64,000 nucleotides of DNA. It comes from Mytilus trossulus (Eukaryota). Position numbers and translations under genes: made by a program. The stretch lies in the NCBI RefSeq assembly GCF_036588685.1, contig NC_086379.1, forward strand, positions 58,838,001-58,902,000, read 5' to 3'. Below the pieces are notes generated by a model, which worked only from the letters and a program-made list of their open reading frames with translations, was not told the origin of the DNA and did not search any database. Of the stretch, positions 4,675-57,153 are shown one piece after another (within the stretch, counting starts at the first letter, position 1; each line of letters begins with the position of its first letter).

Positions 4675-6385
4675 TTACATAACATACTATCAATCTTACG
4701 CTAGTGTTGTTATTGCGCGTGAGAGAAATTCCAAATATGGGCGAAATCAATGACCTAATAAGGAAACTTCCATATAAGGTTCATATCTTTGCACTTAATG
4801 TCTTAGAAACACGACATCATACCAGCCCTTTTACTGTGAAAGGTGCGCAACGTCGGTGCAAAAATAGTTCGTAAGAAGATATTACAATAATCAGAATAAA
4901 ACTCTATTCTACATAAATCTTACATAAAATGCTCTTAAGACATTTATCTCTATATTGAAAAACATACAAAAATATAATTACAACATGGTCAAGACAGTCT
5001 TCAAATTATACTATTGCTCAGTATTTTCATTATATTTATCACAACACGTGACTTCCGGTTAACGCCAAAGTAAAAGTAACGTACATTTTATTACAAGCTA
5101 CCGGTCTTAAAACCATGCTTTCTGTTACTCAGGAACTTACAATATAAAAACATTTATACAATACATAGGTAATTATGACATAAAGTACACACCCTCCTTG
5201 CTATATATAATAATACTAAGTACAGTTGTGGTAGAGACATAGACAAACAATGTCAACCTAATTAAATTAAAACATGCAATCTCCATAATTCATAAAGTTT
5301 TCACAAGGTTTGGTAAACAATACTTCCCAAACAAATGAACAATATCAATAATTTGCGCACAACTGTTTTCTGAAATCGTCACATTACCCCCTCCTTACAA
5401 AAAGTGGGTTATTTACAAACAAAAACGATAACTGTCGCTACCTCATATCACATAGATAAACTTTGTTATACATATAAATAGTAAATAACATTATGACAAT
5501 TTCAATAGATAATAAAATAATACTATTTGACCTATTTAAAAGTTGTAATGGTTTCCACTTTTAATTATAACCACTCATTTACTGCTATAATACAATAACC
5601 CATATACATTTAAACTACAATTTTCTTTATTAATTCCCCCCTTATTTTTAACTTAAGTTATGCAATTTTGAACAATAGATATTATAAACGTACATAAGTT
5701 CTTAGTGATTTCGTGATAAGCATATCACTACTAGAGTGTCCACTAAGTATCTTCTTCATCCGGATAGTAGTTGAGATCTTGATGTAATATAATGTAACTA
5801 ATGGAATTATAAACTAGTATACAAATCAAATGGTATAAGCACCTTTATTGTTATTACATTTCAATTTTTTTTTTAAATACAGTTAGTTCTTAAACCATGA
5901 CATTTCTATAACAGGAACTATACCTGTGACTAAAAGTTAAGTATTTCAAATTTTAAAGTTTTAAATCCTGAAATACAATTTAAAATAGCATATCAATTTC
6001 AGATATATTACCAATGTTTAATCGAACGATAGACTTGGTCTACAACCAACACCAATACTACATGTTTGGGTAGTTGGTGTTTGGGTATCTTTGGTATGGA
6101 TCTCCTTATAATTGGGATCAGTAACATAGGTCGAAGTCAATTCGTATACAGTTCCGTCCGGTAGGTCAGAAAGTAACGTGGGGGGTTCCCGAATTCCACT
6201 TATTTGACAGTTTTTTTTTACCTACGTTTATTTATTCTTCGGACAAATGTTTTCATTGTGTTTATTTTGTAGATGTATCATTGTTAACTAAATGGTTTCA
6301 CCACTTAAATTTAATTTTGAATCGATATGGAATCATAGAAAAAAAAGTTGGTCTCAACTAACCTCCTAGCCATCAATGAAATGAA

Positions 6386-6826
6386 TAAAGTCATCATAGA
6401 TACCAGGAGTAAATTGTGTATACGCCAGACGCGCGTTTCGTCTACAAACGACTCATCAGTAACACTCGAATCCAAAAAAGTTAAAAACGCCAAATAAAGT
6501 ACGAAGATGAAGAGCATTGAGAACCAAAATTCCTAAAAGTTTTGCCAAATACAGCTAAGGTAATCTATGCCTCAGGTAGAAAAGCCTTAGTATTTCAAAA
6601 AAATCAAAAATTTGTGAACAGTAAATTTATAAATATAACGATATCAAAAAATTAATGACAGTTCATGTCAGCACAAAACGTGCTGACTACTGGGCTTGCG
6701 ATACCCTCGGGGCAAATAAATCTCCACCAGCAGTGGAATCGACCCACTGGTTGTAAACAAACTTATCATAGATACCAGGACTAAATTTAGTATACGCAAG
6801 ACGAGCGTTTCGTCTACAAACGACTC
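6386..6826 (-). mobile_element. Hammerhead-containing retrozyme-like repeat (family A), about 1.2 tandem units of 372 nt
   Basis: TCATAGATACCAGGA...GACGCGCGTTTCGTCTAC recurs 372 nt apart. The same family occurs at 9.1k, 27.3k, 28.6k, 36k and 57.1k. Confidence 0.85.
6423..6464 (-). ncRNA. Minimal type I hammerhead ribozyme
   Basis: Minus strand reads UGUUA-CUGAUGA-GUC(GUUUGUA)GAC-GAAA-CGCGC-GUC-UGGCG. Core is intact and helix III is palindromic. Confidence 0.8.
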
Positions 6827-6833
6827 AAATCCA

Positions 6834-6920
6834 CACGACGGGTGCCGTATACGGTGCAGGAAATGCGTACCCTTCCGGAGCACCTCATTTCACTCCCGGT
6901 TTTTAGTGGAGTTCGTGTTG
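6834..6920 (+). repeat. Conserved structured motif of the PLE-associated 3' region (GGGTGC...TACCCTTCCGGAGCACCT)
   Basis: Homologous to copies at 15.6k (+), 27.5k (-), 47.0k (-) and 47.7k (-), with compensatory changes. Confidence 0.7.
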
Positions 6921-9020: not shown

Positions 9021-9452
9021 ATAAGCTGTATTTGATGCAACGTTTAGGAATTTTTAGTCCTCAATGCTACAAACGACTCATCAGTAACACTCGAATCCAA
9101 AAAAGTTAAAAACGCCAAATAAAGTACGATGATGAAGAGCATTGAGAACCAAAATTCCTAAAAGTTTGCCAAATACAGCTAAGGTAATATATGCCTCAGG
9201 TAGAAAAGCCTTAGTATTTCAAAAAAATCAAAAAATTGTGAACAGTAAATTTATAAATATAACGATATCAATGACAGTTCATGTCAGCACAAAACGTGCT
9301 GACTACTGGGCTTGCGATATCCTCGGGGCAAATAAATCTCCATCAGCAGTGGCATCGACCTACTGGTTGTAAACAAACTTATCATAGATACCAGGACTAA
9401 ATTTAGTATACGCAAGACGCGCGTTTCGTCCAAAACGACTCGAATCCACACG
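9021..9452 (-). mobile_element. Retrozyme family A copy with a short inverted fragment at its left edge
   Basis: 9067-9452 is near-identical to 6440-6838. 9021-9066 is a + orientation piece of the same family. The two hammerhead halves sit at opposite ends of the unit. Confidence 0.8.
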
Positions 9453-10960
9453 ACAGATTTAGGTTTAAGTCACATGGCACCAAATCGAAATGGCTGATTG
9501 ACGGCTAGACTTATTTAAAAATATAACTGAAATGACGTCATCGATAACACCTATTTATTCATCAAAGCTTAGAAAATGTATACTAGTAAAATTTAAATAA
9601 ATTTGTTATTCCCACACAAATTAATTAAGTCACTGAAATTGCACGGCTTTAACAGCTAACATGATAATGCAACTCGTGTTTTCATTGTTTCTCGCAAACA
9701 TCAGACAAGAGTATGCCACTGCAACACTGGTAATTTGCCTTAAATTAACTTTTGTTTCATCTTTCACACATACTAATACAAGTGTTTTAAGTAAATGTGG
9801 ACTATGTGTGTTCAAGAATACAAGTAAATGCGGACTATTGGTATTCAAGAATGCAAGTCAATTTTTATTGAATATTAAAGTACAATAGTAGAAAGAAAAA
9901 CGCGTTTAAAAAATTTCAACAATACAAGTAAGTAATGGTGTCTTTGCTAGATGCACACAATTGATTTTTAAGTCTGTTTCTTTGTTTGAATGTGTTTCCT
10001 GCAAAGTTTAAGTCTCTTGTCGATTTTCAAGTATTCTGGCCTTAAGCATCACTGGTGAGACATATATTGTCCAAATATGCATATTGGGTTATATAATGCG
10101 TACTGTTACTGATTGGTCTTCATCGTAAATATTCTATTTTGTCTAAAAGTAAGAGAACAATCGTGTTTGAAATTATTGTTTAAAAAAGTAATTTCCAATG
10201 TAATAAAGGAGAGTACTTATTCTGGCAGATAGAAATGTTAAAAGTTCTGAAACTACCAATAATGTATATGGTATGTACCAGGCTGTTAGTGTTTTATTTT
10301 AAATGTTTATAGATTTTGCTTATTGCTAAAGGTGGTGTGACCTTTAGGTTGTTTGGATCTTTTTCAAATGAGCTCTACAGATAGTTGTCTCATGAGCAAT
10401 CATGCAACATCTTCTTATTTTTTTTTACTGAAATTCCATTTGAGAAAATGTGACCTCAACATGCTAAATTTATGATGTTGATAGAACCGTGATTTCATGT
10501 TTTGAATGATGCACATGAATATGTCTTGATCACTTAGCATGCTTGCATAGTCATAATCTGTATTACTCGTTAAATTGAGCAGCTTCAATAATTTTTTTGC
10601 CCCATCATGAATTTAAAAATTTACATCTTCAGCATCTTTTTCTTCTGTGTACAAATGACAAGAGAGTTAATGATCATTTGAATTCGAACCACTTGCATTT
10701 TGCGCTTTTTTGCTGAAAATATGAACGATCACTGAAACAATGAAAACGAAATGGTTGTTAAAAGTTTTTCATAGACATCGACGACTAAGTGTGCAATATT
10801 TGCCCTTTTATTGAACATGTACACCTGTATACATGTTTTTTTGAAAATTTCATTTTGTGTGCAAGTGAAATATTTATTGTACAAATGACAAATTTTTATT
10901 CTTACTCTCATATATATGACTGTTTATCGACATATATTTTACTGTAAGAGTTGAGAGTAT

Positions 10961-11175: not shown

Positions 11176-14100
11176 TGGTTGAACGTAATACAAAAACCGT
11201 TCCACAGATGATTTCAAATATGTTATACATGTCTAAACTTAAATCCACAACAAATTACAATATATGTGCCAAAATACCTGAACACTAAAATCCAGATAAG
11301 TGAAAATCCACTGTTCGCCACCGGCTATAATTTGAAAGTGACGACTACTTTCTGAAAATGTTTCTTATACGACGTCACTGAAGACACGCTAACATAGTGC
11401 ACGTGTACATTAATATGAAAGTGAACCAAAGTGACGGTTCTAGTAGACAAGTATGATTTTGGACCATTCAAACATTATAAAAAGGATAAATATGGAATTA
11501 AATACGATGCTTTAAAAACTTGTAATTGTTTTGTAACTATGAAAGATTATTCCAAGCAAGTGTGCAACAATGAAAAGATGTACGACCTAGTTTCGCGGAA
11601 AATACACGGGAAATTTGAATGAAATGTTTTTATTAAAAGAATACTGTCAATAATCGTGGCACAACACCGCACCACTTAAAGAAAAAAAATAGACTGCCCC
11701 TAGAATTGACATATTAAACATTAAATGAATGCTCAAATTTCAACATAAATAGCATACATATATAGCAGCAAAATAAAAGTCTCTTTATTAGTATTTTAAT
11801 CAAATCAAAAAGTTCTTTCTATTTTCTTGATTTAACGACACCAACAGAACTTCTTCTGATCTTCTTAGAGGATTTGGGCTGAGTCCCGGTTTTACTGTTT
11901 TGGAGTTTTTTCACTTCTTCTTGAAGAGCTGTCTTCCTTTTTTTCAGTTTTTCTATAAAATTACCAAACCGATGCACTAAAATGCATGCTCTTCTAAGTC
12001 TTTACGTTGATTACATTTCTACCAAATTATTTCCTTATTCCAAAATTTATTTATCTTTGGGATCAATGTTTATTTTCGCAATTTCAATCACTTCTTCTTG
12101 TATAAATATTTTGTCATTTATTCATGTTAATTCAAATTCAGTAAGGTCATCACCAACATTATTCAATCGTAAATGTATACCACTTATAGTTAATGTATTA
12201 TGCAGCCTTCACTACATGCTTTCAAAATAAAGGTACTTTTGATTGAGTTAATCCATTTCAATTGATTTTTTAAAGTGCGTCTTTCTTTATTGTGATGTTG
12301 AACTTTTATGTTCCCTCTATCATCTTTTCAAGCACATGAAATTTGTAAAATTCACATGAAATTTCTAAAATTTACGTGTGGTCAAGAATTATTCAAAGAG
12401 TCAGTCTTGTTCAACTTGGTCTGATAACTAAATAATTAAGTTTTATAAATGTTCATAGTTTATGATGGATGCACGATTTTCGGCAGCTATATTATGAATT
12501 GAAGCAAGTGTGGTGTTAGTATTATAATATACAGTGAATAAGTGCATTTCTAGTACCAAAATATAATGTGCTAAGTTGAAAAATATATTCTGCATGTGGA
12601 ACATAATGTTTATGTTTAGCGTTAAAGAACCAACAAAAGCAGCTTAATTAAAAGTGTTCTGCACGTTAAAAGATAGCTGGATTTAATGAATAAACATAAA
12701 AAGACATTTAACGATTTATCACATTTACTATGAATCAGAAAAATAGTGTTTAAGTTAATATTATAAGATAGCATCAAACAGGAATAAAATACTATGTCAT
12801 TCAAAAAAACGTGAAATGCATTCTTTAACTTTTCGAATAAATAAGAATAATTCCTTCTACTTAATATCAAAGGGAATATATATTAAAGAATTTACAGTAA
12901 AGCCATGTTTATGTAAAATAAGGAAGTATAGTTATTGCAGATAAATTATACCGATAGGTATTCGACCCAGACAATACGTAGATACTTTGATTAGTCCTCA
13001 ATTAAGCATTCTTTGTTCGTATGTTATAAAAATTTACCACCCCACAATTTATCGGAAATAGTTCTTGTAATTTAAGACACAAACATAAGTATGCTTATAA
13101 CTTGAATTTGCTGATTAAGTATCTAATACTGTAAATAATGTTTAGGGTTTCTTCCAAGGGAAGTCTTGTCAAGTGAACTTAGTTTTTATTCGCGTCTGAT
13201 AAGTTGTATTTCGAAATAAAAACGTGATTTTAATTTTGAAATTATGTCGGACAAGACATATATCAACCAATATATATAAATACCAGCAATCTATTAACAT
13301 AGTTTCTGAAAAAGTGGAACGCAAACAACATTGAATGCTACTTTGAACCCGGTATAGAACTCAATACTAAAAATCATTAGAAACGGGTACATTGACACAC
13401 AAACAAACTATTGTGTTGTTGCCTCATAATGTTTTTATTGTTCCAAAGATTGCTCACCCTATACAAAACAACATGTACGCTTTAAAGCAATCAATTTGTT
13501 AAAACTAGCACAGCCTGTTTCACATGCCGTGGCCATTTAAGTTAAAATCGGCGCTGATTATTTTTGGAAGATTGTAGAGGACAAATTAATTCGAGTACCC
13601 GGACCGAACTGAGTGAAATCAAATGTCTCGTCCTGTTATCTGGGCCTTTGCATCGAAATTTATCAGATAATTTCACTCGTTCATGTTAATCAATATTGCA
13701 CACTTTAACTCCACAAAAACATAAAGTTTGTGAAATACACACCTTTTGGAAATTGAGTCCATTGGAACGGATAAAAGTATATATAACAAATATACCGACT
13801 TCGACGGAAAGTTCAAATCGGAAAGTCTCTTTTTAAATGCATAATAAAAAGCTCAAACACACCAATAGACCGAAAAACAACTGTCGTATTACCGCCTTGG
13901 TACAGTAATTTCCGTATGTAGAAAATAGTGTTTGAATCTGATTTTACACCAAGAAAAACCTTACACTTCGATGAAAGTTGCTTAAAATTCCGCTAAATTG
14001 TCTTTGTATGAGCAGGAAATCTTCACAAGACCAAATGAATAATTATCAAGAATTCAGTATCTCGAAACGTCATGGATAGTCAAAGAAGAAATGACTTGTA

Positions 14101-15389: not shown

Positions 15390-15792
15390 ATGGTGATGTT
15401 GAGATCCCTTGGTAAATTTTTCGGACGCCATCACGAGTTGGTTGACCGTTATGGAATTACCGTTTCACAGATGAAATCGGATATGTTCCTTACGTCGTAA
15501 CTACACTCGCCTTCCCTTTAATAAATGTGACCTACAGAATTAGACTATTGAATGGATTTGTTATAACATGAGCAATGCGACAGGTGCCACATGTAGAGCA
15601 GGGTTTGCTTACCATCCCAGAGCACCTGAGATCACCCCTAGTTTTTGTTTGGGTTCGTGTTTTTAGTTTTACTATGTTATCATGGTTATGTCATGTGAAC
15701 TTTTTTTTGTCTTCTTCAATTTTAGCCATGGCGTTGTCATTTTATTTTCAATTTATGAGTTTGACTGTCCCTCCGGTATCTTTCTTTCCCTC
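15390..15792 (+). mobile_element. PLE 3' end fragment (end of RT plus 3' region)
   Basis: Translation KFFGRHHELVDRYGITVSQM, then the GGTGCC...AGCACCTGAGATCACCCC motif and the GTCCCTCCGGTATCTTTC tail. Homologous to 47575-48106 (-). Confidence 0.75.
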
Positions 15793-16835: not shown

Positions 16836-17338
16836 CACAAAGAACGAATAAATTTGATCTGCGATATCTGAGTACAAATGCACAGTTAATTAAATATTAG
16901 AGACAAACAGTCATGACCAAAAGGCTATCAAACAAATTCAAACACACTGAGAAATATTTAACCAATCAATTTATGTATGGCAGATTATGAATGACCTGGT
17001 TATAAAAGTTTAAATACAGAAAAAAATTACTTAAGAATATTAACAAAAACACCTTTCCATTAAAGACGCAACTTTTGGTAACAATCAGCAAAAAAAAATA
17101 TACCAATATAGGCTACACTTTTAAAGTAATCATCTTTTTAGAAAAGCATCCATTTCTGGGATTTTGTCACACTCCTGACATATTTGACACATATCATATA
17201 TATCAAAAAATATATAATATGAATGCATTTATCACATGTTGGAAGAAAAGTATCAAAAACCAGCAGGCAATTCTATCGAAATTTCATGAAATTATTGAAT
17301 ATATAGAATATGTTCTCTTTTTTTTTTAAACAACATAA

Positions 17339-18282
17339 GGGTGGAATCAGAAAAAATGAAGATTTTAACATATTGGGGCATATTGTTTCCCTCATTATAT
17401 TTAGGAAAGTAAATTAAATGTCAAACCAACAAGTTCAATACCAGCTAACTTGCAGCCAAATTTCATTTAGATATCTTGTACCAGCCAAAAGTTTTATTAA
17501 AAAAAACATGTCAAATTTGTCAGGAGTGTGACGCTTTTTGTGTGACAGGATTTTCTTTTAATAATTTACATGTTGAGTAAAAATTATTATGATGAATGCA
17601 TGTATATGAAGATGGTTTATAATCATTCTTCAATACTAGGTTTTGTAGATTATAGATTGGTGTTATCATTGCACAAATATTATGTAAATAAATATACATT
17701 GTGAAAAGGTATGTACCAAAAATTAATATTGGCAAAATTTGATAATTTCTAAATTAAAGTGTTATGGTTGTATTTTAAAGGAGTATTTGTGTGTAAAACT
17801 GGTAAGTATTTAATGTATACATGTATAAGCTATCCATAAAAGGCTATACAGACATCATGAGGTGCATAATTCACATATTGGATTAACTTCTATACAAGCA
17901 CCCAAAAATTGTCAGGAGTGACAACTGTCTTTAAAAATGTACCAAATTTATATAATGCTTTTCATCTTACATTGTTATTTATTTTTCAGAAGCACCTGTT
18001 CCATAGAGAAGAAAAACATTTATTGCAGCTGTGATAATCTATATGTTGAATCTACACACTTGTTTTTTAGATGTCAGGAGTGTGACACTTTTTTTATACA
18101 TTCAATGACATATATTGTTTAAATTTTAATTACATATTCAAAAAAATGATCCATTGTTACTTGGTGTCACAATTTTGATAGAAGAAGGTTAGTAAACATG
18201 TTTTGTGTGATTTCTAAGACACATGGATAATATTTATTTAGTAATAATTCATTTATGCAACTAATTGTCACCATAACATGTT
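17339..18282 (+). repeat. Left long inverted repeat (~944 bp) of the Sola-like element
   Basis: Near-perfect reverse complement of 19682-20621. The ORF track shows mirrored 71-aa ORFs at 17520 and 20226. Confidence 0.95.
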
Positions 18283-19681: not shown

Positions 19682-20621
19682 AACATGTTATGGTGACAAT
19701 TAGTTTCATAAATGAATTATTACTAAATAAATATTATCCATGTGTCTTACAAATCACAAAACATGTTTACTAACCTTCTTCTATCAAAATTTTGACACCA
19801 AGTAACAATGGATCATTTTTTTGAATATGTAATTAAAATTTAAACATTGTCATTGAATGTATAAAAAAAGTGTCACACTCCTGACATCTAAAAATCAAGT
19901 GTGTAGATTCAACATATAGATTATCACAGCTGCAATAAATGTTTTTCTTCTCTATGGAACAGGTGCTTCTGAAAAATAAATAACAATGTTAAAGATGAAA
20001 AGCGTTATATAAATTTGGTACATGTTTAAAGACAGTTGTCACACTCCTGACATTTTTGGGTGCTTGTATAGAAGTTAATCCAATATGTGAATTATGCACC
20101 TCAGGATGTCTGTATAGCCTTTTATGGATAGCTTATACATGTATACAATAAATACTTACCAGTTTTACACACAAATACTCCTTTAAAATACAACCATAAC
20201 ACTTTAATTTAGAAATTATCAAATTTTGCCAATATTAATTTTTGGTACATACCTTTTCACAATGTATATTTATTTTCATAATATTTGTGCAATGATAACA
20301 CCAATCTATAATCTACAAAACCTAGTATTGAAAAATGATTATAAACCATCTTCATATACATGCATTCATCATAATAATTTTTACTCAACATGTAAATTAT
20401 TAAAAAAAAATCCTGTCACACAAAAAGCGTCACACTCCTGACAAATTTGACATGTTTTTTTAATAAAACTTTTGGCTGGTACAAGATATCTAAATGAAAT
20501 TTGACTGCAAGTTAGCTGGTATTGAACTTGTTGGTTTGACATTTAATTTACTTTCCTAAATATAATGGGGGAAACAATATGCCCCAATATGTTAAAATCT
20601 TCATTTTTTCTGATTCCACCC
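19682..20621 (-). repeat. Right long inverted repeat (~940 bp) of the Sola-like element
   Basis: Reverse complement of 17339-18282. Confidence 0.95.
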
Positions 20622-23609
20622 TTCTGTTAAATATCCAATCGCATAGCTGTTGATTATTTTGCTGTGGTTTTGAGAATTCACGGTAATATTCAGGTAAGTT
20701 AAAAGATCATTTTCCAAAATGTTTGGTGTACTGTTATTCTTTCCCGTTAGGTTACGGTTGGTTTGCCGGGGATAACTTTAAAGGTTATTTTTTTGAAAAG
20801 TTCCGTTTGCACACTTCGAAAGCTGGCATTCATTTTTTTAATTTGGTCGTTCCTGATGTTTCAGTGTAATTGTCTCCGTCTGGTACAGGTTTCAGGTTTT
20901 TCACGGAGTGTTTTTAATTTTTTATTTCATAGTGAAGTTTGCGTCACATATATTATAGTTGTAATCTTGGCTGTGTCTTCATGGAAGTAGTTTCCGCGGC
21001 ATACCAAATTCCTTGGGTTCTGAGTACTTGTATTCAAATCAATAGAAAGTACCTTTTGTATGAGGGATGGTGGGAAAGTCTGGTCGGAATAACAAATACA
21101 ACACTTAAACAAATCCTGGGAAGATCCAAAGCTTATGAGTTCGTGTCCGCGCAGATCCGACGTATATATAAATACGACTTTTCAGACGATTAAGGCAGTG
21201 CTCAACACATGGAATTATTGTCTATTTTAACTAGTTTAATAAACCACAATCGTTACTAGGTTCATAACCCCAATTTTGTATATTTAAAACTTTACCAATT
21301 AACCTTAAGTGTTTGCATGTAACTTCTAATACATTCTCCATTTTGACATTCCAATATTAAAGTCAAAGGGTGTCTTTAGACTGTCTTCTCGATCTTTGAT
21401 ATATATTTAGGATATTTATGACTGATAAACTACATTTTTAATGTATAGCTATCTTTGGATAATGAAATGAAGGCTTATTTTCCTGTCGCAATACTTTATG
21501 TTGTATGAATATAACAATCAAACTGGTAAAACTTAAAAAAACAAATCAAAGAAAATTTGGGTCATTTCCATGATGTAAAATTGAAGCAGCTATTATTTAA
21601 TAAGAAGAAAAAAACACTGAATAACAATGAAATATGATTAAAAACGTCTGTCAATTGATAGGTACACTTTTAATTTAATTTTGGTATATATGATGAGTTT
21701 ATTTACATGATGATGATGAATCCCTTGTATCCTCATCAATTTTGGATAAATAGAAAATATGGAAAAAATTAAACGGGCAATATCGGGTACTTATTCGTTA
21801 TAAGAAAAACATCATAGATTCACTTTTTTTTTTTTACAAAAGATCTTGAAATTTAAGACGGAAACAAGAAACATATTCCATTGAAACGTGTTACCTACCT
21901 AGAACAAAAATTAGGTTTATGAAAGAAATGACATGTAATGAAAGAGAAAATACACACTACGACTTCTTTACACGCGTTTCAGTATACAGCGATGCATAAT
22001 AGTATCCGTCGTGCGTACAAATGGTATAATGAAAAGAAATATCCTGGTTTATCATATAATTTGAATGATAATATTAACAGGATACGTGAGCAAATATAAC
22101 ACGAATAGAAAATTGAAAAACAGAATTGTAATCAAAAGTTCTAGACACTCCGGTTAAATATAATAGATTTCGGGCTTCACTGGGGCTATGGACTATGAAC
22201 TCGTGTTTTTTGTGATTGTCATTAATACCCCTTCGCCCGACAGCTCAGGAGATATATAACAGTGACGGAGAATATGAGTCCATATTTCCGTTAGATCCCC
22301 AGATAGCGTATTGAGAAATACTAGTAGGTGGGTTGCACGGTATAATATTTGATATTGAATTAAAAATTGTGATGGATATTGTATAGCAATATGTATAATT
22401 CAAATTATTATCATGGTATGAATTGGATCTCAGAATTGTTGGTATGAAATTGCTTCACCGCAGAATTACCTTAACAAGTCCACTTTCTCCATGTTTCGAA
22501 ATAAAACTAGGGGAAGTTAACCTTTTTAAGATTTTAAATATAAGACCAAAGTCGTTAAATTACAAAAAAAAACAGACTTTTCTGGAGTGCTTAGTTGACA
22601 GTTATTAACCATTATAAAGTATAAAGTGTAAAGCCCGGAAAACATTTAACTAGCATGTGGACTTTTATGCGACATTTAATCGTTGTAAGCTGAAAATATG
22701 TTACTGTATTTATGTTGAGAACGGAAATTATCAAATCTTTAACAGACTTCATCCTGTTTAAAATTGATTTCATAGAATTTGAATACTTCATACAGTCTAA
22801 GTCAAATAACCTACTATTGATAGACGGAATTGAAAAAAAAATACCAAGTCACTGTTATATTTTTTGGGTAAAAAACATATGGTTATGTAGGATTTGTTTG
22901 AAGAACTAATTCCAGGCGGACATGTAACAGTTAATATTGATCCGTCATGAAAAATAATTGGAAAATCGAGATATCTTCAAACCATATTGAAGATAAAATA
23001 CGAGAAGCATAACCGCTTTGTATGCTATATCCATAGCATTGTTGGTTATCAAGGTTATTATAAGAAAAAATATTCTGACAGACATTCTTTAAAATGACAC
23101 AAATGAAAAAAAATATATACAACTGTGTCTTGCAATGGGAACATTACATATCCAAGATCCATTTTTGTTTGTTTAGATTTTCATCTTATGATTTTAGACT
23201 GATGGTAAAATATGAAAGACTATTCGACCTGCGGTGACAAAGTGACGATTAATCGTCTCAATAAATAAACTTCAGTTCCAACATGAAAACGTGGTTATAG
23301 TTATTGGAATGATAGTTACTTATATATATATATCGATTATCCACTTTTTGGCAGTTATTATTCCGCTGAAAACGTATTCTTCTTTTTTTGCAACAACAAA
23401 AAAGAGAGTATTGTTTAACTAGATGGTTGTGTAGTGAAAAGTTGACCTATTTAAAACTAGACAAAGTGATGCCTCCGCACTCCACTCTGAGGTAACTGTA
23501 ATATAACAAAGTTAATGTAGAAATTTCTTTGATATACTATTGTGTCTGGGAGACACAATTGATGCCCTGCCGATGGAAAGTGATATTTTTAAATAACTAT
23601 AACATTTAA

Positions 23610-24090
23610 AAAGTAAAAACACAAACATACTGAACTCCGAGGAAAAATCAAAAAGGAAAATCCAAAATCAAAAGTCCAAAAACATCAAACGAATGGATAA
23701 CAACTGTCATATTCCTGACTTGGTACAGGCATTTTCTAATGTAGAAAATGGTGGATTGAACCTGGTTTTATAGCTAGCTAAACCTCTCACTTGTATGACA
23801 GTCGCATCAAATTCCATTACATTGTCAACGATGCATGAACAAAACAAACATACTCAAAGAGTAAAAATGTCAAAAATAGGGGTACAGCAGTCAATATAGT
23901 GTTATAATCTTAATATCACTATTAAAACAACAAATGTAACGAAGAAGCACAAAAAGGCATACATCATATTTAACATACTCATTTTGCTTTTCTTATACGA
24001 CCTAATTAATCTATGTACAGTTAGGATAGAAGGTTTTCAGTACTGGTGTAAAATTGTGCGTTTGAAATTCGCACAGGTAGACATAAAAAT
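23610..24090 (-). mobile_element. Dispersed short repeat family carrying a twister-like motif
   Basis: Reverse complement homolog of 40165-40640. Fragments at 13.8k, 31.6k, 40.0k, 44.7k and 47.3k. Confidence 0.8.
23703..23802 (-). ncRNA. Twister ribozyme-like motif (GGU/ACC, AC/GU variant)
   Basis: Minus strand reads ACUGUCAUA..GUGA-GA-GGU-UUAGCUAGCUAUAAAACCAGGUU-CAA-UCC-AC-CAUUUUCUA..UAGAAAAUG-CCUG-UACCAAGU-CAGG..UAUGACAGU. Confidence 0.55.
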
Positions 24091-26150: not shown

Positions 26151-27317
26151 ATTTTAAACTTATTTCATTTGTTGATTTTACTTTGCAAAACATTTTGAAC
26201 TAAATTTCTATCTTTTTATTTCAATTCTCCATAAAAAACTTTAATAAAGAAAAACAAAATGGTAAGCAATTCTAATAAATATAAACTTGCTATCCTATAA
26301 CATATTCAGAGCTTACACATAAATAAGTCTTAATCTGCTTATGACTATGTCTAAATTTTATACAAGAAATATTTGAACAGAATAAAAAAGTTTAAAATAT
26401 TGACTCCTATAACCACACAAATGAGGGAAAAAAATCTTATATTTAGTAAAAATGTTCAATAACACAATTCAATATAGATAGCTCAGGTCCTTGTGAAGTC
26501 TTGTATAGAGGTTAACGATGTCATAGGTAGTGGCACATTCGCCACCTATTAAAATTACGTCTTTTCATAAACATAAATAGAACTAAACAAGTCTGTAATT
26601 TTCTGACTTAAATTAAAATGAAAACACATTTTTTTAATAAATATTTTTTTGACTTCTGTAACTTATTTGGTTTATAATTCATCAAGTGTGTCTGCTGTGT
26701 CTGGCAGTAAATATGTTAATCTTGCCAATGAGAACTAGATGAAAAAATTTAAAGCATGTCTTGTTTTTAATTAATTTGCATCTTATGAGCTCTATTAAGA
26801 GTTACACAAAAAATAAAAGTTATTGACACCCTTTTTGATAAAAAAAAAAACAACAAAAAAACCTTTGAGTCTTGACATCTGCAAAGTGATAAGGTATCAT
26901 CATAGAATAATTGTACATGTCAATTACACGAAAGGTATAAAACATACATTTCTCAGTTCCCAGTTTCTGATTTTAATAGCAACATAAAAGAATCTTAGAA
27001 TAAACCTGGTAACTCAACATACCCCCTATACTTGTAATAAAAATCTATGAGTAGTTATTTCAAAGCAACACTCATATAGAGCTACTTAGATATTGGCAAC
27101 ATAGTTTTCAAAAAGGGACTTATCCCCTTGGTATTTTAAAAATCCAGGATAAGTTTGCACCATACTCACTATTTGGTTTAAATAAATGTACATCATCAAA
27201 CACACCAATATTATTCATTACATGATGCACAGTTCTCAAACGTGTCATCCAAGATGTTATGAACCGTTCTTGATTAGATAAACCTATAATAGATAGCAGG
27301 ACTAAATTTTGTATATT

Positions 27318-27359
27318 CGCAGGACGCGCGTTTCGTCTACAAAAGACTCATCAGTGACC
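27318..27359 (-). ncRNA. Minimal hammerhead ribozyme (core intact, helix I weakened) in a family A fragment (27278-27395)
   Basis: CUGAUGA-GUCU(UUUGU)AGAC-GAAA-CGCGC-GUC on the minus strand. Confidence 0.7.
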
Positions 27360-27395
27360 CTCGAATCCAAAAAAAGTTTTAAAGGCCAAATAAAA

Positions 27396-27665
27396 ATAGG
27401 ACGAAAGATATCAAAGGGACAGTCAAATTCAAAAATCTAAAATAAACTGACAACGCCATGGCTAAAAATAAAAAAGGCAAACAATAGTACACATGGCACA
27501 ACATAGAAAACTCAAGAATAAACAACACGATCCCACCAACAACTAGGGGTGATCTCAGTGCTCCGGAAGGGTAAGCAGATTCTGCTCCACATGTGGCACC
27601 CGTCGTGTTGCTTATGTGATAACAAATCCGGTAAATAGTCTAATTCGGTAGGTCACATTCATGAA
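27396..27665 (-). mobile_element. PLE-type 3' region fragment
   Basis: Homologous to 15520-15790 and 47575-47830. Confidence 0.75.
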
Positions 27666-29057: not shown

Positions 29058-30291
29058 GGCCACACCAATTTGGTTACTTGTTCGACGGACCCGCTCGCAC
29101 GTGTTTTTTTCTAAACAGATTTTTTTTTATATTTTCCCGCTTCCCGCATCCGGAAACAAAATCGTGTCTTTATCCCGCATCGGTTTTTTCGATTTTTTTT
29201 TTATAAAAACTCAATTAAATCGCCAGAGCGTTTTAGTCAACGTCAAATTGCAATGATTGTACTGTTTATATCTAAAACACAGATTTCTTCTTTCTCAGAT
29301 TACAGTCAAAAACAAATAATTTCAACAAGTAATCATGCCGATTTTTGTCGTAAGAATTCAGGACTCACAAGGAGGGGAGGTGTTGCCGTCCACGGCAATA
29401 CCGTTTGCCGGTGGCAGTTTTGTTGAACTGTTTACGTATTGCGTCGGAATTAAAAAAAATCAGCCTATTATCTAACAATGTTACAGCAGTGCATTTGAAA
29501 GAGAGTATGACGTCAGACCACATAGCGGCCGATAACGCTGACATGGACGTTTTGTATCTAACAAACAGCATTGTGTATGTTGACATATATAATTGTTTAC
29601 TTTAAATACATTGTATTGTACTTTGTCTAGGCTTTGGATTGTAGGCTGTATGTTGACAAATAATTGTTAACTTTAAATACATTGTATTGTACTTTGATTG
29701 AGAGTTGTCTCATTGGGACTTGTACTACATCCTATTTATATCAACATGACAAAAAGATAACACCAAAAACAATAGAGACACAGAAAACCAACATGTAATA
29801 CAAAAAAATTGAAAGTACAACCATTAATGAACAGCATGAACCCCAAACACTGGGTAAACTCAGGTTTTCGGAAAGGATAAACAGTTCCTGATTCTTGCAA
29901 GACACTGCTGTGTTTCTAGCGACATCATGTAGATAATTTATAAGGCAGTTGAAGTTATTCATTTATTCAGTTCAACATCTGATATCATCATGATCATCAG
30001 AAAGTAATGGTAATACAAGTCATAAATATGCTGAAATTAAACGTGGAGCAGTTGAGAAATTTAGCAAATGTCAATGTAAAAGTGGTAATTCTAGTTTCAT
30101 ACCATTTTTTTTTGTCAGGATCTTTGATTTATGTTTATAAAAAAAAAATTAATCGCTCGCCTTTACTTTTCAAGCTTCGCCTCAAAAAATTTCAAATTCA
30201 TTTCTTTTTTATTTAAATTTTCAAATCGCTCGTTCGCCCCAATTTCTGAAGTGGAAAAATCCGTAGAACAAGAAATTAAATTGGTGTGGCC
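29058..30291. mobile_element. MITE with GG...CC termini and TAA TSD (Zator- or Harbinger-like)
   Basis: 31-bp TIR GGCCACACCAATTT.(G/A)TT.CTTGTTC.ACGG at both ends. TAA at 29055-57 and 30292-94. Confidence 0.85.
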
Positions 30292-34304: not shown

Positions 34305-34770
34305 CACATAAATGACCATATAATTGATATTAATGTCAACACCCAAGTGCTGACAAATGGGTTCGTGATACCATCGGGGACGAAACGTCCACCGCAGTGG
34401 AATCGACCTAGTGGCGTAAATTATTATCAAAGGTACAAGGCTTATAATTTAATACGCCAGACGCGCGTTTCGTCTAAATAACTCATCAGTGACGCTCAAA
34501 TCACAATAGTTATGAAGCAAAACAAGTACAATGTTGAAGAGGACCAAAAAGTTATGCCTAGGATAAGGAAATCCTTAGTTTTTCGGAAAATTCAAAGTTT
34601 TGTAAACCGGAAATTTAAAATATGACCATATAATATTGGTATTCATGTCAACACCGAATCGCTGACTACTGCGTTTGTGATACCATCGGGAACAAAACGT
34701 CCACAAGCAGTGGCATCGACCTAGTGGTGTTAATTATTATCAAAGGTTACATGCTTATAATTTAATACGC
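34305..34770 (-). mobile_element. Retrozyme-like tandem repeat (family A', unit about 315 nt)
   Basis: ATCGACCTAGTGG..AATTATTATCAAAGG..CTTATAATTTAATACGC recurs about 315 nt apart, with a hammerhead in between. Confidence 0.8.
34455..34494 (-). ncRNA. Minimal type I hammerhead ribozyme
   Basis: CGUCA-CUGAUGA-GUU(AUUUA)GAC-GAAA-CGCGC-GUC-UGGCG. Helix I CGUCA/UGGCG pairs fully. Confidence 0.8.
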
Positions 34771-35935
34771 AAAATGCGAGGTCCGTCTCATAGAAAAGTG
34801 ATAAATAATGTAACCTAATAAGTAAACTATGTGTAACTTGTCATTATGACAATTGTTAAGAGATCGTCTATAAATATTAAGAGAAACAGACTCCACATCA
34901 AAACTCGTGTATAACGATATTTCTCCACCACTTTTAACAGTTAAATTTGAATTATATAAAAACATCGGCTAGCTTCGGGCTTTATATATTAAAATGTAAC
35001 TGTCTGGGTGTGAACATCGAATCACAATTTGCGCAGTGGTGGAATCTATATTTCTCTTATGTTTACTGCCGAAGAAGTTCTGTTGACCAGATTTATGCAT
35101 CCTAAGTCAATCGTTTGAGTTTTCATATATGCTCGTTTAAGACAGTTTCTACTCTTTGACCACCTTTCTGTTCCTTTCATCAACATATACCAACCTGCAA
35201 TGGTTACTCACACACTGCTACCATATCACTACACATAGATTTAGATGCTTTAAAAGGTATGATTATCGGGTAGTCTTAAATTAAATGTTACATCATGATG
35301 TATATTAATAAAAATGTTAAAAATCGGTCATATGTACCTAGAATGTACTGTTAGAGAACTGAAAGAAAATAGTTTTTCACACTTAGTAAACAAATCTGAT
35401 GGTTTTTGTTTGTTCTTTCCTGATGATAGATTACTGGATATTATACGTCTAGACCCTTCTATTCAAATACTAAATCACAAATTATGTTCTAATAAGTTTA
35501 ATGCAAGTGATTATGTTGAGGAATTATTTTGTATTTTCCCTTTTTGAATTGATGATCTGTTATCGGGCCATGAACAAAGGTAGTCTTGTCTGGTACAAAG
35601 ATTTAGCACAAATAATCCTTTATTTTTACAAGTTCAGAATGTGTCTGGAATCTTCAATGTGAAATTATCCAATAGTTACTATTTTAGGTTAATAATGGTA
35701 TCGGGAATTTATTAACCGACCACTTGTTACAGATGAAACGACATAAAAGGACACTTGTTACATTTATTGAAGGATGTCTTACTAATACGTGTCGAGTACA
35801 TCTAAAATAGCATTTTAGTCTTTCAATATAATAATGTGGTTCCTTACAATTAATCTCTGTCATACAAAATCATTGTTGCAATGGTATTTTTTTTCTGCTA
35901 TAGATATAGTCAGATGTGGTATGATGATTTATTTT

Positions 35936-36322
35936 CAACCACTGGGTCGATATTTATTTCACATAGGGTATCACAAGCCCAGTATAGCACTTTCTGTGCT
36001 GACAAAAAAGTCATGACATAAATTATCATTGATATTGTTATATTTATAAATCAACTGTCTTCAAAACTTTGATTTTTTTGAAATACTAAGGCTTTTCTAC
36101 CTCAGGCAGAGATTACCTTAGCTGTATTTGGAAACACTTGTAGGAATTTTGGATTTCAATGTTCTTCAACTTTGTACTTTATTTGGCTTTTTTTGGCTTT
36201 TTTTTTTTTTTTTTTTTTTTAACTTTTTAGGATTCGAGCGTCACAGATGAGTCTTTTGAAGACGAAACGCGCGTCTGGCGTATATATATAAAATTTAGTC
36301 GTGGTATCTATGATGAGTTTAT
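35936..36322 (+). mobile_element. Retrozyme family A monomer with a mutated hammerhead (36239-36280, CAGAUGA)
   Basis: CGTCA-CAGATGA-GTCTT(TTG)AAGAC-GAAA-CGCGC-GTC-TGGCG. The body is the reverse complement of 6386-6760. Confidence 0.85.
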
Positions 36323-37748: not shown

Positions 37749-38582
37749 CTGTTTGCATAGCATAAATTGTTCTAAATAATAAGGATATTCTTATCCCAAG
37801 CATAAAAACATAGCCGTATTTGACACAACCTTTTTCAACTTTTAATCTTCAGTGCTGTACAACTTTGTACTTTTTCACATTCCATCTTTTATATCTGGGC
37901 GTCACTGGTGAGTCTTGTGTGGACGAGGCGGGTTTTGGCGTATTGAATTTTAAACCTGATGCTTTTTGTTATAGATCTTTTAATCATATGATTCTTTGCC
38001 TAATACGTTCTCCTATTTATTTGTATTGTAGTCATGTAATTTAATGTTGTCATTCCAATGTTATATTTAACATTGTCATTAAAGTGCGAGGTTTGCCATG
38101 CCACAAAATCAGGTTCAACCCACCATTTTTATCTTTAAAAATGTCCTGTACCTAGTCAGGAAAATGGCCATTGTTATATCGTAATTCGTGTCTGTGTGTG
38201 TAACATTTTCACCTTGTGTTTCCGTTGTGTCGTTTGTTTTCTCTAATATTTGAGTGTGAATTCACATTACTATAAGACGTGTCACGGTATTTTTCTATCC
38301 CAAATTCATGTTTTTGGTTTTGATGTTATATTTGTTATTCTTATCGGATTTTGTCTAATGCTTAGTCCGTTTTTGATGCGTTTTGTTATTTGATTTTGCC
38401 ATGTGATTATGGACTTTCCGTATTGATTTTCCTCTGAGTTCAGTATTTTTGTGATTTTAATGTTGTGTCGTTGTTCTCTTATATTTAATGCGTTTCCCTC
38501 AGTGGTAGTTTGTTAACCCAATTTTGTTTTTTTCCAAATATTTACGAGTTTTGAATAGCGGTATACTACTGTTGCCGTTATT
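37749..38582 (+). mobile_element. Composite repeat (family B): degenerate hammerhead followed by a twister-like motif
   Basis: Highly similar to 42695-43461. Hammerhead remnant at 37899-37940, twister-like motif at ~38074-38170. Confidence 0.8.
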
Positions 38583-39610: not shown

Positions 39611-39898
39611 AGAAAAATTGGTACCGTTAATTTTAATACTACCACTTGGTCGATGTCTCTGCTGGTGGACTGTTAGTCCCCGAGGGTTTCACCAGCCCAG
39701 CCATATGAAAATGAGGAGGTTTTTTTGTGTTATTTAAACTTGCTGTAACATAATGTTTGAAATTATGATTAATGAAGGAATGTATCTCCCTCATGCAAAG
39801 CTCTGAATCCTGTCAAGGATTTGGCTATACTTTTTGAACCTTTTGGTTTACAGCTCTTCGTCTTTTATATAAGCTTTGAATTTCAAAGATTTTGGTCG

Positions 39899-40164: not shown

Positions 40165-40640
40165 CTTTAACCTGTGCGAATTACAAACGCGCATTTTTAC
40201 ACCAGTACTGAAAACCTACCATCCTTTATGGGTGGATTTTACTTTTTAAAAAAAATTCGTGTAATATAGCAAAAAAAGAATGTTAAACTTGATGTAAGCC
40301 TTTTTGTGCTTTTTCGTTACATTTGTTGTTTTTATAGTGATTAAGATGATAACACAATGTTGACTGATGTACCCCTATTTTTGACATGTTTACTTATTGT
40401 GTCTGTTTGTTTTGTTCACGCATCGTTGCCAATGTTATGGAATTTGATGCGACTGTCATACAAGTGAGAGGTTTAGCTAGCTATAAAACAAGGTTCAATC
40501 CATCATTTTCTACATAAGACATGTCTGTACCAAGTCAGGAATATGATAGTTGTTATCCATTCGTTTGATGTGTTTGAACTTTTGATTTTGCCATTTGATT
40601 TGGGACTTTCCTTTTTTAATTTTCCTCTGAGTTCAGTATT
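40165..40640 (+). mobile_element. Dispersed repeat with a twister-like motif at 40452-40550
   Basis: Reverse complement homolog of 23610-24090. Confidence 0.8.
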
Positions 40641-44694: not shown

Positions 44695-47574
44695 TATATG
44701 ACACTGTCTTACAATGAAGAGGTTTATCTTGAAATACAACCAGGTTTATCCCTCCATTTCTACATCAGAAATGCTGTACCAGTTGTCTTACAATCGTATG
44801 ATGTGTGTGAGCTTTTGATTTTTTCATTTCACATTCTGATTTGAATATACTAGAGTTCAGTATTTTGGAGTTTTCATACTTTTTATACCTCGGAAGTTAC
44901 ATTATATTTTTCACAATTCATTCTTTACGAAATTTCAATAATCTAAAACCACATTCCAAGACTTGCACATTCAGATGTCTATAAATGATGTCTTTGTTTT
45001 TTATTATTTTTTTTTTATAAAGTTCTTGCATCTCATTATATCTTATGAGATTTGAGATTCATGGATTTATTAATATTTAAAGAGATGTGGTATGATTGGC
45101 AATTCGACAATTATCAACTTAATATAACATACGTTCAAATCACTTTACTAACAAACGAAATATGACAGACATGAACAACGGCAACTACTGGACTACTCCT
45201 GACTTATTACTGGCACATACAATGTAAAGAATGTGGTCGGGTAAACATATAATAATGAACGGTTTTTTTTAGCGTATAAACCCCCTCCATTATTAACCTG
45301 GGGCAGTGATGTAACTAACAGTGCTCCATATTAAGGACAAGCTATAACAATAACTTGCAATTGGCTTTTCTAAAAAGATAGGTACTTCTGAAGCAAGAGG
45401 ACCTGTCACATATATACTCATTGTCATATAAATTTTTTAAAATGCACTTCTGGTCACTTCGCCTCTGATTGTGTTTTTAGGGGTAACACGACAGGTGTCA
45501 TACGTAGAACAGGATCTGCTAAAAATTATTAGCACTATACGTGTAGCATACTCAAAACCACAAACACATGATTGCATTTGCTCTAATCTCTTTTTTTTAA
45601 ATGTGCATTAAAATTTGCCACTGGACGTTAGGCAAGATGCAATCGTTCAATTAAACTTTCATTCAAAAAGAAGTTATAAACAGCGATGATATATTGTGTA
45701 GGTTAATAAATTGCCCTTTCAATAAAATCGATAAATAGTATGTACTATGTGAACAGTCATTACAGTATATTTTCTTAGAAATGAGGGACGAATTACCAAA
45801 TGGACAGTCAAACTCATAAATCTAAAACAAACTGACAACGCCATGGCTAAAAATGAAAAAAAAACAGAAAAACAATTGTACACATGCCACAACATAAAAA
45901 ACTAAAGAATAAACAACACGAACCCCACCAAAAACCATATAGAAAGATACATGTGCATTGTGTAGACATCAAACGAATATGATAATGAAGTTTATTACAT
46001 AAAAGTTGTCTGAAGCATGTAAATTTGCTTCAGCTGCGTTCGTATCTTATGTGATTATTTGTTTATTTTTAACGAAAACTGTTTGATAAATCATGTGCAA
46101 TCGCAACATATGTATCAGTAGCACATGCATACTATAATGTTGGAAGACAATCTGATACGTAATTAAGACTGAGTAATTGTCATATAATGATTATAATATA
46201 CTTTGAACCCCAAATCCTTTGGGTTGAGACATTTGTAAAACAAATAAAAGTACAGTACTATGAGTTTGTTAACACGCAGATGTCAATCAAGAATTGGGGA
46301 CCTTCACTTGGTGAATGTATGGAAATGGCTCTTATATTGTGCAGTCACACTGGTGGTTTAGGTATTACTTTTTAACAATTGTCTACACCTACAGTTGAGC
46401 ACGACTTCGACAGGTAAGATGTGAGGTGTCGTCTCAAAAATAAAAAGTGAACATAATACTATTCATCATTATTGGATGTATTGCTTGAAATTAATTTGAT
46501 TGGCAATGATACAATTTTCTACCGTTGTCCAAAAAACATGGAATTTTTTTTTAAATTTAGAATAAAGACGATTAACTTTAAAAAAGAAGAGAAACAAATC
46601 GATCTCTGATCGTCTTAAAGGGAATCACTTATGAAAACGAAGAACAAAATGTTACATAATTAACTAAACAGTTAATATAGTTTTATTGACCAAATCAACA
46701 TTATCAAATCTAGAAAAGGGATATAGTTTGCCTCCAATGAGTTGATTATCGGCATTTATTTTTTTATATTATCGTCTTTTGTCTATAATGACGACACTCA
46801 AACGATTAACTGCAATTGGCTTTATCCTACAATAATTGAATATCAAATTTTAATGGTCAGCTAGTACTTTAAAGGGGCATCAATTATGAAATTCATGTTC
46901 ACAGATAGATTTGACCAAAAATCTAATATTTGATTTATCACATACAAAACGTCTCAGTAAAAATGAAAGGAAACAAGACAACTAAAGACTAAGCAACACG
47001 AACCCCAACAAACACTTGGGGTGATCTCAGGTGCTCCGGAAGGGTAGGCGTATTCTGCTCCAAATGTGGATATTATTTTTTCTTAACTCATGATTGCATC
47101 TGCACGTGTATTAGTATAAAAAGCATTAAAGTTACATTCGTCCATTAAAATCAGGCTAAAAATACAAGCTTTTAAGCACTTCATTGAAGTTTGTTTTTTT
47201 CATTTGAATGTTGAATGAAGCCTGAATGAATATTTGAGCTACTATACTTTTATTTTTGTGTAGCTATTTACAGCAAAACAGTTGACAAAAAGTAAAAATC
47301 ACAAAAAAACTGAACTCCGAGGAAAATTCAAAACGGACAGTCCATAATCAAAAAACAAATTAAAAAGCTCAAACACATCGAACGAATGAATGAAAACTGT
47401 CATATTCCTGACTTTGTACTGGAATTTTCTTATGCAGAAAACGGTGACTTGAACCTGGTTTTAAAGCTAAGAAAAAATCTGAATTGTGTGACAGTCGCAT
47501 CAAATTCCATTATATTGACAACAAAATTGTCTGGCACTGTGTTTATTATTTAACAGGTTAACAACATAAGTAAA

Positions 47575-48106
47575 AGAGGGACAGTCAAACTCATAAATTG
47601 AAAATAAACTGACAACGCCTGGCTAAAATTGACAGAAGACAATCAAACAATAGAACACATGGCACAACATAGAAAACTAAAGAATAAGCAACACGAACCC
47701 CAACAAAAAATAGTTTGATCTCAGGTGTTCCTGAAGGGTTAGCCGAAACTGCTCCACATGTAGCACCCGTCGTGTTGCTTATGTTATAAAATCCGGTAAA
47801 TAGTCTTATTCGGAAGGTCACATTCATCATATCCGATATCATTTGTGAAACATTATTCCATAACGGGCAACCAACTCGTGATAGCGTCCTTTAAATGTAC
47901 GCAGGGATGATTTCAACTTCACCATTTAGAACTCTTGGTTTAATAGCTTTTTTGTGAGCAGCATTCCTCTCTCAAGAAAATCATGATAGGAAATGCAAGC
48001 ACTGGAATATCGTATCAATTGGGGCATATATACCCCTTATGCAGGTGCTGCTGGAATGTTGCTACTTAGAAATGGAGGGTCACAATTGGAAAGCTGAAAT
48101 CATCTC
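47575..48106 (-). mobile_element. PLE RT C-terminus plus 3' region
   Basis: Minus strand reads DDFSFPIV..FLSSNIPAAPA.GVY..QLIRYS.ACISYHDFLERG.LLTKKLLNQ, followed by the structured 3' motif. Confidence 0.8.
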
Positions 48107-51012: not shown

Positions 51013-51979
51013 ACAGATGAAGGATGTTATTTTTTACATTTAGTTTTGCTTTTATAAATGTTAAAACAACCTGACTCAATTGAACACTTCATATTCCGAC
51101 CTTTTGTTACTTTTACAACATCTGTATTGACCTTCTTAGTACATGACAGATCAAAAGAATTAGCTTATTAGGCCAAATTCTATTTGAAAATCAATGCAGA
51201 ATATTATTACATAAATTTTGTGTTATAGGTATTATGCAAACGAGAGGCGAAAGATACCAGAGGGGCATTCAATCTCATTAATCAAAAATATAAGCCGACA
51301 ATGACATAGAGAAAAAAAGACATAGTCAAACAATTGTACACAAAACACAAAATAGAAAAATAAAGACTAAATAACATGAACCCCACCAAAAACCGGTGGT
51401 AATTTATTAATAGTACTGATTGAGGTTTGTAAATAATTTAATATACAAGACACGCGTTGACGCCCAGATCAAAATACTTTTTTATAAAGCCAAACAAGTA
51501 CAAAGTTCAAGAGCATTGAGGCCCCAAAAGTTGTGTCCAATACGGTTAAGGTAATCTATTCTTGTAACTGATAACTATTCACATATTCGTACTTAGTGGC
51601 AGGATGCATGTTTCTATATTTCATTGATAATATGATTTCTCAGCATGTTGTTAAATGACAAGAGTATTAGGATAATGTCTCATAAAAGTGTTTGTATTCA
51701 ATTTTCATGAACGTATAAAACCCATATTTAAAAAAAAGATGTCATTTCATTTCCTAAGAAAAATACACAATTCATCTGTCAAAACATTGTTAATGTAGAG
51801 TCTATGGTATGCCTGTTATATTAAACCAGGATGTTTTCTTTTAAATTATCTAACTATTTTAGCTAATAATTTGCGATCTGATAGACGGTCAGATATCAAT
51901 AAAAAAAGAAAATAGAAAAAACCTTTGTTGTGTAAAAATCTGTAATCTTTAGTCACGAAAATTCATTGGAAACGGTCTT

Positions 51980-57111: not shown

Positions 57112-57153
57112 CGCCTGACGCGCGCTTCGTCTACAAAAGACTCATCAGTGACG
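57112..57153 (-). ncRNA. Hammerhead (GAAA to GAAG variant) in a family A fragment (57073-57215)
   Basis: CGUCA-CUGAUGA-GUCU(UUUGU)AGAC-GAAG-CGCGC-GUC-AGGCG. Confidence 0.6.

Follow-up and report, generated by a model that had tools for sequence, protein, structure and literature searches.

An undescribed RNA family with two predicted inter-copy palindromic helices in the 3' UTR of Naiad Penelope-like elements, a candidate dimer-activated ribozyme

New small self-cleaving ribozyme classes are rare and have mostly come out of bacterial data. The repeats of Penelope-like elements (PLEs) carry dimeric hammerheads with a palindromic helix III and low activity in vitro (Cervera and de la Pena 2014, PMC4209133), and in a lizard PLE the hammerhead requires protein for cleavage and is not needed for in-vitro insertion (PMC11167929). 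The Naiad clade of PLEs has a diagnostic layout, i.e. an N-terminal GIY-YIG domain, a CxC motif, DKA and a C-terminal RT; its members insert as partial tandems and many of their 3' ends are 5'-truncated (Craig et al. 2021, PMC8557442). Hammerheads and SECIS elements were sought in that work, canonical hammerheads were reported as absent from Naiads, and their role was left unclear (PMC8557442). The motif analysed here occurs in 12 of the consensus sequences of that paper and is undescribed in the passages of it that were accessible.

The window, i.e. the whole stretch of DNA that was analysed, comprises 64,000 nt of the Mytilus trossulus genome (NC_086379.1, positions 58,838,001 to 58,902,000). 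The original prediction had located copies of a structured RNA at 6834, 15575, 27525-27610, 47.0k and 47.7k and a partial one at 45485, all of which were recovered by BLAST, a five-copy profile and a covariance model, together with three further fragments. In total, the window holds four whole copies, one without its 5' strands and four fragments:

6833-6918, plus strand: copy containing all elements named in the original prediction; motif size about 90 nt
15575-15660, plus strand: whole copy, starting 85 nt past the RT C-terminal fragment 15390-15497
27525-27608, minus strand: whole copy, P2 3' strand short by one base
47691-47775, minus strand: whole but decayed copy, downstream of the RT fragment 47854-48075
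46996-47069, minus strand: copy whose P1 and P2 5' strands are gone
45484-45522, plus strand: fragment, 5' half only
29817-29890, minus strand: strongly decayed fragment, newly recovered
51349-51404, minus strand: fragment, newly recovered
45893-45936, minus strand: fragment, newly recovered

The core descriptor has 0 occurrences in 100 shuffles of the window, and the copy at 47.0k, which was left out of model building, scores an E-value of 6.5e-16 in the covariance-model search (E-values being rough). The motif had been predicted to lie just downstream of the RT C-terminus, and the RT C-terminal fragments 15390-15497 and 47854-48075 are indeed located on the strand of the motif and end 85-86 nt upstream of it. 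The 5' end of the 6834 copy abuts an opposite-strand hammerhead retrozyme fragment and is cut off there. As this copy has G6867 and C6886 where 12 of 12 published families have U and G, i.e. two changes at otherwise fixed positions, it is probably dead or decayed. A duplication with 95% identity (6442-6839 versus 9067-9454) ends 7 nt into the P1 strand of the motif, and the junction between retrozyme and motif is older than this duplication. Retrozyme units carrying a type I hammerhead with a palindromic stem III, measuring about 372 nt and of the sort known from mussels, are found at 6385-6827 (minus strand), and further ones at 9067-9454, 27278-27394, 34312-34788, 35939-36322 and 57071-57215. 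Moreover, 17332-18282 and 19682-20628 form a 950-bp inverted repeat with 97% identity, a probable DNA transposon or inverted insertion.

The window itself contains RT fragments and no full Naiad ORF. With a 75-aa RT fragment from the window as query 844 proteins were obtained, and P0054, with 994 aa the longest among the matches listed, is 76% identical to that fragment. P0054 has GIY-YIG at 129-169 and RVT_1 at 786-848, each below the Pfam cut-offs, as well as the CxC motif and DKA in place of DKG, and its RT is C-terminal. Thus, based on the diagnostic domain layout of this homologue, the host of the motif is a PLE of the Naiad clade, and the window resembles the 3' ends of Naiad_Mgal and the published mussel retrozyme. 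A metagenome scan that covered 23 of 64 parts yielded at least 122 loci with 124 pattern matches, 119 copies of which entered the palindrome tallies. An RT C-terminus is located 42-171 nt upstream on the same strand in 35 of the 124 matches and on the opposite strand in one, with none in the remaining 88, and the 3' end of the element follows about 125-135 nt past the motif. As a same-strand RT C-terminus lies upstream and the element end downstream, the motif is a sense-strand 3' UTR element, which tandem insertion sets into both pseudo-LTRs. At one locus (L007) two copies are 191 nt apart, i.e. a partial tandem; arrays of the retrozyme type were not encountered for the motif. The three GC-rich metagenome matches L040, L071 and L096, none of which scored in the model search, were discarded as chance before counting. 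In viral contigs, five matches to a 17-mer in unrelated context were regarded as chance and the core descriptor had no match.

Published families were assessed by eye and with manual tallies: of the 54 Naiad consensus sequences in supplement S5 of PMC8557442, 36 were inspected over their final 400-600 nt, and the file was additionally searched for CGGGTG as far as the pearl-oyster entry. Within this portion of the supplement the motif is present in at least 12 of the 54 families, representing Cnidaria (Clytia Chem-1 and Chem-2), Mollusca (the bivalve families CGi, Sglo, Olur, Tgra and Pmar), Hemichordata (Skow-1, Skow-2, Pfla-1 and Pfla-2) and Chordata (one fish, Cmel). Its order is P1, CGGGUG, a 10-nt palindrome, 1-2 nt, CAGR, 4 nt, GCUYAC-Y, 2-3 nt, a 6-8-nt palindrome, CACCYG, 5 nt, P3 and P1. 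Covariation was evaluated in an alignment (A1) of 25 copies that were picked for diversity, with intact palindromes favoured. In the 6834 copy, all on the plus strand, the parts are:

6833..6838, plus strand: P1 5' strand, partner of 6913-6918; two-sided changes at 5 of 7 P1 pairs in A1
6839..6844, plus strand: P2 5' strand, with the sequence CGGGUG in each of the 12 published families
6845..6854, plus strand: palindrome 1, 10 nt, predicted inter-copy duplex; two-sided changes at 5 of 5 pairs in A1, including the innermost
6856..6872, plus strand: core (G)CAGR-N4-GCUYAC-Y, invariant across families and similar to twister-sister L1; G, not U, at 6867 in this copy
6874..6879, plus strand: palindrome 2, 6-8 nt, predicted second inter-copy duplex; sequence varies, self-complementarity is kept
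6881..6886, plus strand: P2 3' strand CACCYG, its final G changed to C in this copy
6887..6891, plus strand: junction strand, free in sequence, 5 nt long in 12 of 12 published families
6892..6912, plus strand: P3 hairpin with variable loop; two-sided changes at 3 of 5 pairs in A1
6913..6918, plus strand: P1 3' strand, pairing with the P1 5' strand in A1

In A1 90% of the cells are paired, as compared with 83% in shuffles and 34-46% in slid controls, and 14 of 29 pairs show two-sided changes. The covariation shows a P1-P2-P3 fold with a 5-nt junction on the sense strand, in which P1, P3 and both palindromes covary. Thus, the outer stem, the covarying palindrome and the hairpin ACUCC/GGAGU versus ACCCC/GGG(G/A)U of the original prediction all hold, the latter being P3, and a second covarying palindrome joins the first. 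The stem GGGUGC/GCACCU is borne out as a pairing, P2 being 99% paired in A1, but not as a covarying one, as neither P2, which is partly fixed by the search pattern, nor the core has a single two-sided change. The stretch UACCCUUCCGGA, predicted to be near-invariant, is so in mussel-type copies only; across phyla just YAC-Y is kept, and its last 6 nt are the second palindrome. Similarly, the hairpin GCA..UGC is present in 6833-6918, but its A-U pair is broken in 4 of 13 families.

Both palindromes are kept in 12 of 12 published families, three of which have a G-U pair in one of them (by eye). Among the 119 unselected copies palindrome 1 is perfect in 43, with eight distinct sequence types, and each of its five pairs is Watson-Crick in 86-108 copies. 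The mean self-complementary run in 113 copies is 3.2 at the centre of palindrome 1 and 1.8 at palindrome 2, compared with at most 1.24 elsewhere. Palindrome 2 reads UCCGGA or UCGCGA in metagenome loci and CCUAGG, CCAUGG, UUCGAA, UGGCCA, GGUACC or GUCGAC in published families. As the innermost pair of palindrome 1 occurs in all four Watson-Crick forms in A1 and could not be used by any hairpin, the helix must form between two copies; going by this covariation down to the innermost pair, the two palindromes must join two copies rather than close as hairpins.

This dimer pairing, which the covariation shows directly, would also suit a dimerisation or protein-binding signal that is not catalytic, with the palindromes joining the pseudo-LTR copies or two genomes and the Naiad RT reading the core for the choice of template or start. 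As would suit a surface read by a protein, the sequences of P2 and the core do not vary, and a PLE protein is a predicted dimer that begins reverse transcription inside an AC-rich stem-loop (PMC11167929). Nevertheless, closely related bivalve Naiads do without the motif, which would be odd for an RT-binding site, and we regard such a signal, the strongest of the competing explanations, as rather unlikely. At the level of DNA, perfect palindromes are symmetric and might fold, in the cDNA or the target, into hairpins or cruciforms that the GIY-YIG endonuclease recognises, and PLE endonucleases cut near the ORF-pLTR junction (PMC11167929). However, where only one side of a pair has changed, the sense strand retains a G-U pair (22 of 25 copies at one P2 pair, for example), which would be C-A on the other strand, and the palindromes are free to vary, unlike a protein site, rendering a DNA-level element the most improbable of the explanations considered here.

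The structure is based on covariation and not on energy, as single-copy folding of the sense strand of five copies is no better than that of shuffles (z -0.2 to -2.4). Both RNAalifold, which finds P2 only, and single-copy folding recover little of it, and the homodimer cofold energy is better than in shuffles for just one of nine copies, with a program that cannot build both palindromic helices together. A pseudoknot of the 5-nt purine loop with the pyrimidine run was dropped, as the oyster, Clytia and hemichordate families demand a different register. An alternative pairing, GGGUG:YACYC, is possible in 113 of 120 copies and 12 of 13 families, and CAGR can pair with CCYG. To judge from these complementarities, the alternative pairing could be an off or an on state, and it can account for the invariance of the core in a non-catalytic way. 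Being open in nearly all copies and pseudoknotted, it would fit a 3'-end element for stability or translation that acts as a nuclease block or switches between GGGUG:CACCY and GGGUG:YACYC and involves no cutting, as would the fixed geometry of the three-way junction and the distance of about 125-135 nt to the 3' end of the element. Such an element leaves the two obligate inter-copy helices and the exchange with hammerhead and twister motifs (see below) unexplained, and is very unlikely.

The original prediction could not fit the motif to hammerhead, HDV, twister or pistol, and the Rfam search it had proposed agrees. In the whole window Rfam gives nothing credible at the motif and matches five hammerheads, and with two isolated copies no family model, including hatchet, glmS, VS and the other Rfam ribozymes, is matched up to an E-value of 10. 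Among 122 copies the hammerhead boxes CUGANGA and GAAA are found in none on either strand. Of patterns for further known motifs, a twister L4-like one (guided by the Rfam twister-P1 consensus) occurs in one of 122 copies, the pistol linker and loop B of the hairpin ribozyme in one sense copy each, a relaxed HDV-like descriptor in five sense and no antisense copies and a SECIS pattern in three sense copies; twister, pistol and hairpin ribozyme have no Rfam match either. As in the HDV-like ribozymes of R2 and RTE elements, the strands of the alternative pairing follow the order of P1, P2 and P4, with CA preceding the final one; in contrast to them, P1 would be 5 bp long, and P3/L3 and P1.1 are missing.

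The closest resemblance in sequence is to loop L1 of twister-sister (PMC5660989). GCAGR and GCUYAC of the motif resemble G5-C6-A7-A8-G9 and G59-C60-U61-C62^A63, with the 5'-to-3' order preserved, and by eye all 13 families match C6, A7, G59, C60, U61 and A63 and 11 of them G5, with G9 replaced by A in three of 13. GCARR-N4-GCUYA is present in 72 of 122 copies, which is partly fixed by the search pattern, whereas exact GCAAG..GCUCA is found in none of the 122. The motif differs in having G at A8 in all families, C at position 64 and just 4 nt between the strands, so that neither the A8-U61 pair nor the P2 helix and multi-way junction of twister-sister can be recognised. It also lacks the long P1 and P2 helices flanking the loop as well as the SL4 loop (U30-G31-C32-A33-A34), which docks A7; UGCAA is present in eight of 122 sense copies and is not conserved. 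Since SL4 is missing, A8 is G and the strands are 4 nt apart, the motif is not a member of the twister-sister family. The minimal twister-sister-like ribozymes LINE-1 and OR4K15 consist of that L1-type loop alone and cleave at C^A (PMC11620745), and the motif is a near-match in sequence to such a minimal internal loop (5 + 6 nt), the long flanking stems of which would need the dimer. In the twister-sister register a pair closing the 4-nt linker is possible in 11 of 13 families, compared with 9 of 13 for the A-U pair, a weak difference given the purine/pyrimidine bias. We consider it doubtful that (G)CAGR and GCUYAC form a twister-sister-like L1 site cut at Y^A; in the 6834 copy, the predicted cut would be between 6868 and 6869.

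The invariant GCUYAC (6864-6870, all copies) also reads as the 5' splice-site-like GURAGC in antisense, and on the sense strand it resembles a branch-point consensus; both are probably coincidences.

Closely comparable are the dimeric minimal type I hammerheads of PLE pseudo-LTRs and retrozymes, which share with the motif the location in the terminal repeat of a PLE and a palindrome whose inability to form a hairpin implies pairing of tandem copies. The motif differs from them in the absence of CUGANGA and GAAA boxes, in a second palindrome and in an additional three-way junction. We favour, with moderate confidence, the view that it is an undescribed, dimer-activated self-cleaving RNA of the Naiad 3' UTR. 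Since Naiads insert as partial tandems, a read-through transcript would carry one copy of the motif in each pseudo-LTR. The 10-nt and the 6-8-nt palindrome, being unable to close as hairpins, would join the two copies, and the paired copies would create the active site, much like dimeric PLE hammerheads joined through their palindromic helix III. Cuts at both copies would finally trim the transcript to unit length. In 5,556 RNA reads of one raw RNA run no pile-up of read ends was seen at the motif, nor at the hammerhead control in the same stretch, and the 5' ends of 32-72 unselected fragments, a small sample, do not cluster at the predicted cut.

A comparison of the Naiad families points to an exchange at this position. 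In the stretches covered, 36 family 3' ends comprise 12 with this motif, seven with a twister-like motif and at least nine with hammerhead core boxes, the rest, several of them incomplete, having nothing recognisable, and no end has two kinds of motif. In Mgal, Bpla, Mphi and Chem-3 the 3' UTR is complete and devoid of the motif, and in Clytia alone Chem-1 and Chem-2 contain this motif, Chem-3 hammerhead boxes and Chem-4 the twister-like motif. Naiad-1_Chem has been given an HHR_core flag by its authors, with its place unstated in the portion accessible (PMC8557442). In the window, the twister-like motif is found at:

23700-23790, 13892-13962 and 47287-47522, minus strand: twister-like motif
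40468-40545, 38088-38165, 31631, 40028, 43035 and 44719, plus strand: twister-like motif

It seems to be a circularly permuted twister in which P1 is replaced by two palindromes and which forms the 3' end of another Naiad family. It shares with the motif the position in the element and the succession of a 10-12-nt palindrome and a further palindrome, and differs in having twister P4/L4 and a covarying T2 (AC/GU versus CC/GG across Mgal, Bpla, Mphi, Scon and Mmer, in the parts of the consensus sequences covered). The best Rfam match of one window copy is twister-P1, with an E-value of 0.098 and far below threshold, and a second, more decayed copy gave no Rfam twister match, so the twister-like identity rests on inspection by eye and one sub-threshold match. 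Similar motifs occur in Chem-4 and Movir-1, and two SECIS-bearing clam Naiads have the twister-like motif near the 3' end, within the stretch covered. The literature searched, including the accessible parts of a large twister survey (PMC11662667), contained no paper linking twister to Naiads. The joint occurrence of both motifs at 47.3-47.8k was set aside, as two separate family 3' ends lie side by side there.

In the 3' UTR stretches covered, the Naiads of Acropora, Pomphorhynchus, Octopus, Euprymna and Eulimnadia as well as Morbakka-2 and Chem-3 have GAAA upstream of CUGANGA with long spacing; these look like permuted hammerheads that standard descriptors missed. Naiad-1 to -4_Chem have a further short 3' UTR motif around CCGAACCGGG right after the stop codon, irrespective of the ribozyme-like motif that follows. 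It is conceivable, and we propose it tentatively, that the motif represents a new ribozyme class, spread from cnidarians to fish and built only from two palindrome-joined copies, and that Naiads swap the hammerhead, the dimeric twister and this class as modules.

A different motif bears on RT recognition:

6705-6733, minus strand, and 39659-39685, plus strand: CTGCTGGTGGA..CCCCGAGG, a motif of the retrozyme and of Naiad 5' ends

In the consensus portions covered CTGCTGGTGGA..CCCCGAGG begins bivalve and hemichordate Naiads and is also present at the 5' end of fish ones. The hammerhead retrozyme of the window lacks the studied motif and contains this one, which in the tandem follows downstream of its hammerhead. 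The RT start site of the lizard PLE has the same placement relative to the hammerhead (PMC11167929). By analogy, this suggests that the RT signal is CTGCTGGTGGA..CCCCGAGG and that the studied motif occupies the ribozyme slot. As the hammerhead retrozyme shares this different motif with Naiad 5' ends and lacks the studied one, the RT-recognition half of the original prediction is weakened, and so is the dimerisation signal discussed above, while the motif stands as a fair, predicted ribozyme candidate in a PLE. CTGCTGGTGGA..CCCCGAGG itself is a candidate RT-recognition or promoter element, and its sharing hints that Naiads move mussel retrozymes.

Taken together, the structured RNA predicted for the 3' region of a PLE is conserved and fits no known family, with the refinements that the PLE is a Naiad and that there are two palindromes, both predicted to act between copies. 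The full texts searched, including the accessible part of a 2026 retrozyme preprint, contain no description of it, most subscription papers and the Repbase/Dfam notes being outside this scope. The motif is thus a real, undescribed RNA family with a predicted function, and its newness lies in the RNA family, whereas the likely role, the processing of PLE tandem transcripts, is of a known kind. If the ribozyme reading is true, one or another of three ribozymes would occupy the slot in every case, which would answer the point left by Craig et al. 2021 (PMC8557442) in the passages accessible; even without cutting, the motif is an undescribed RNA dimer motif conserved in four phyla.
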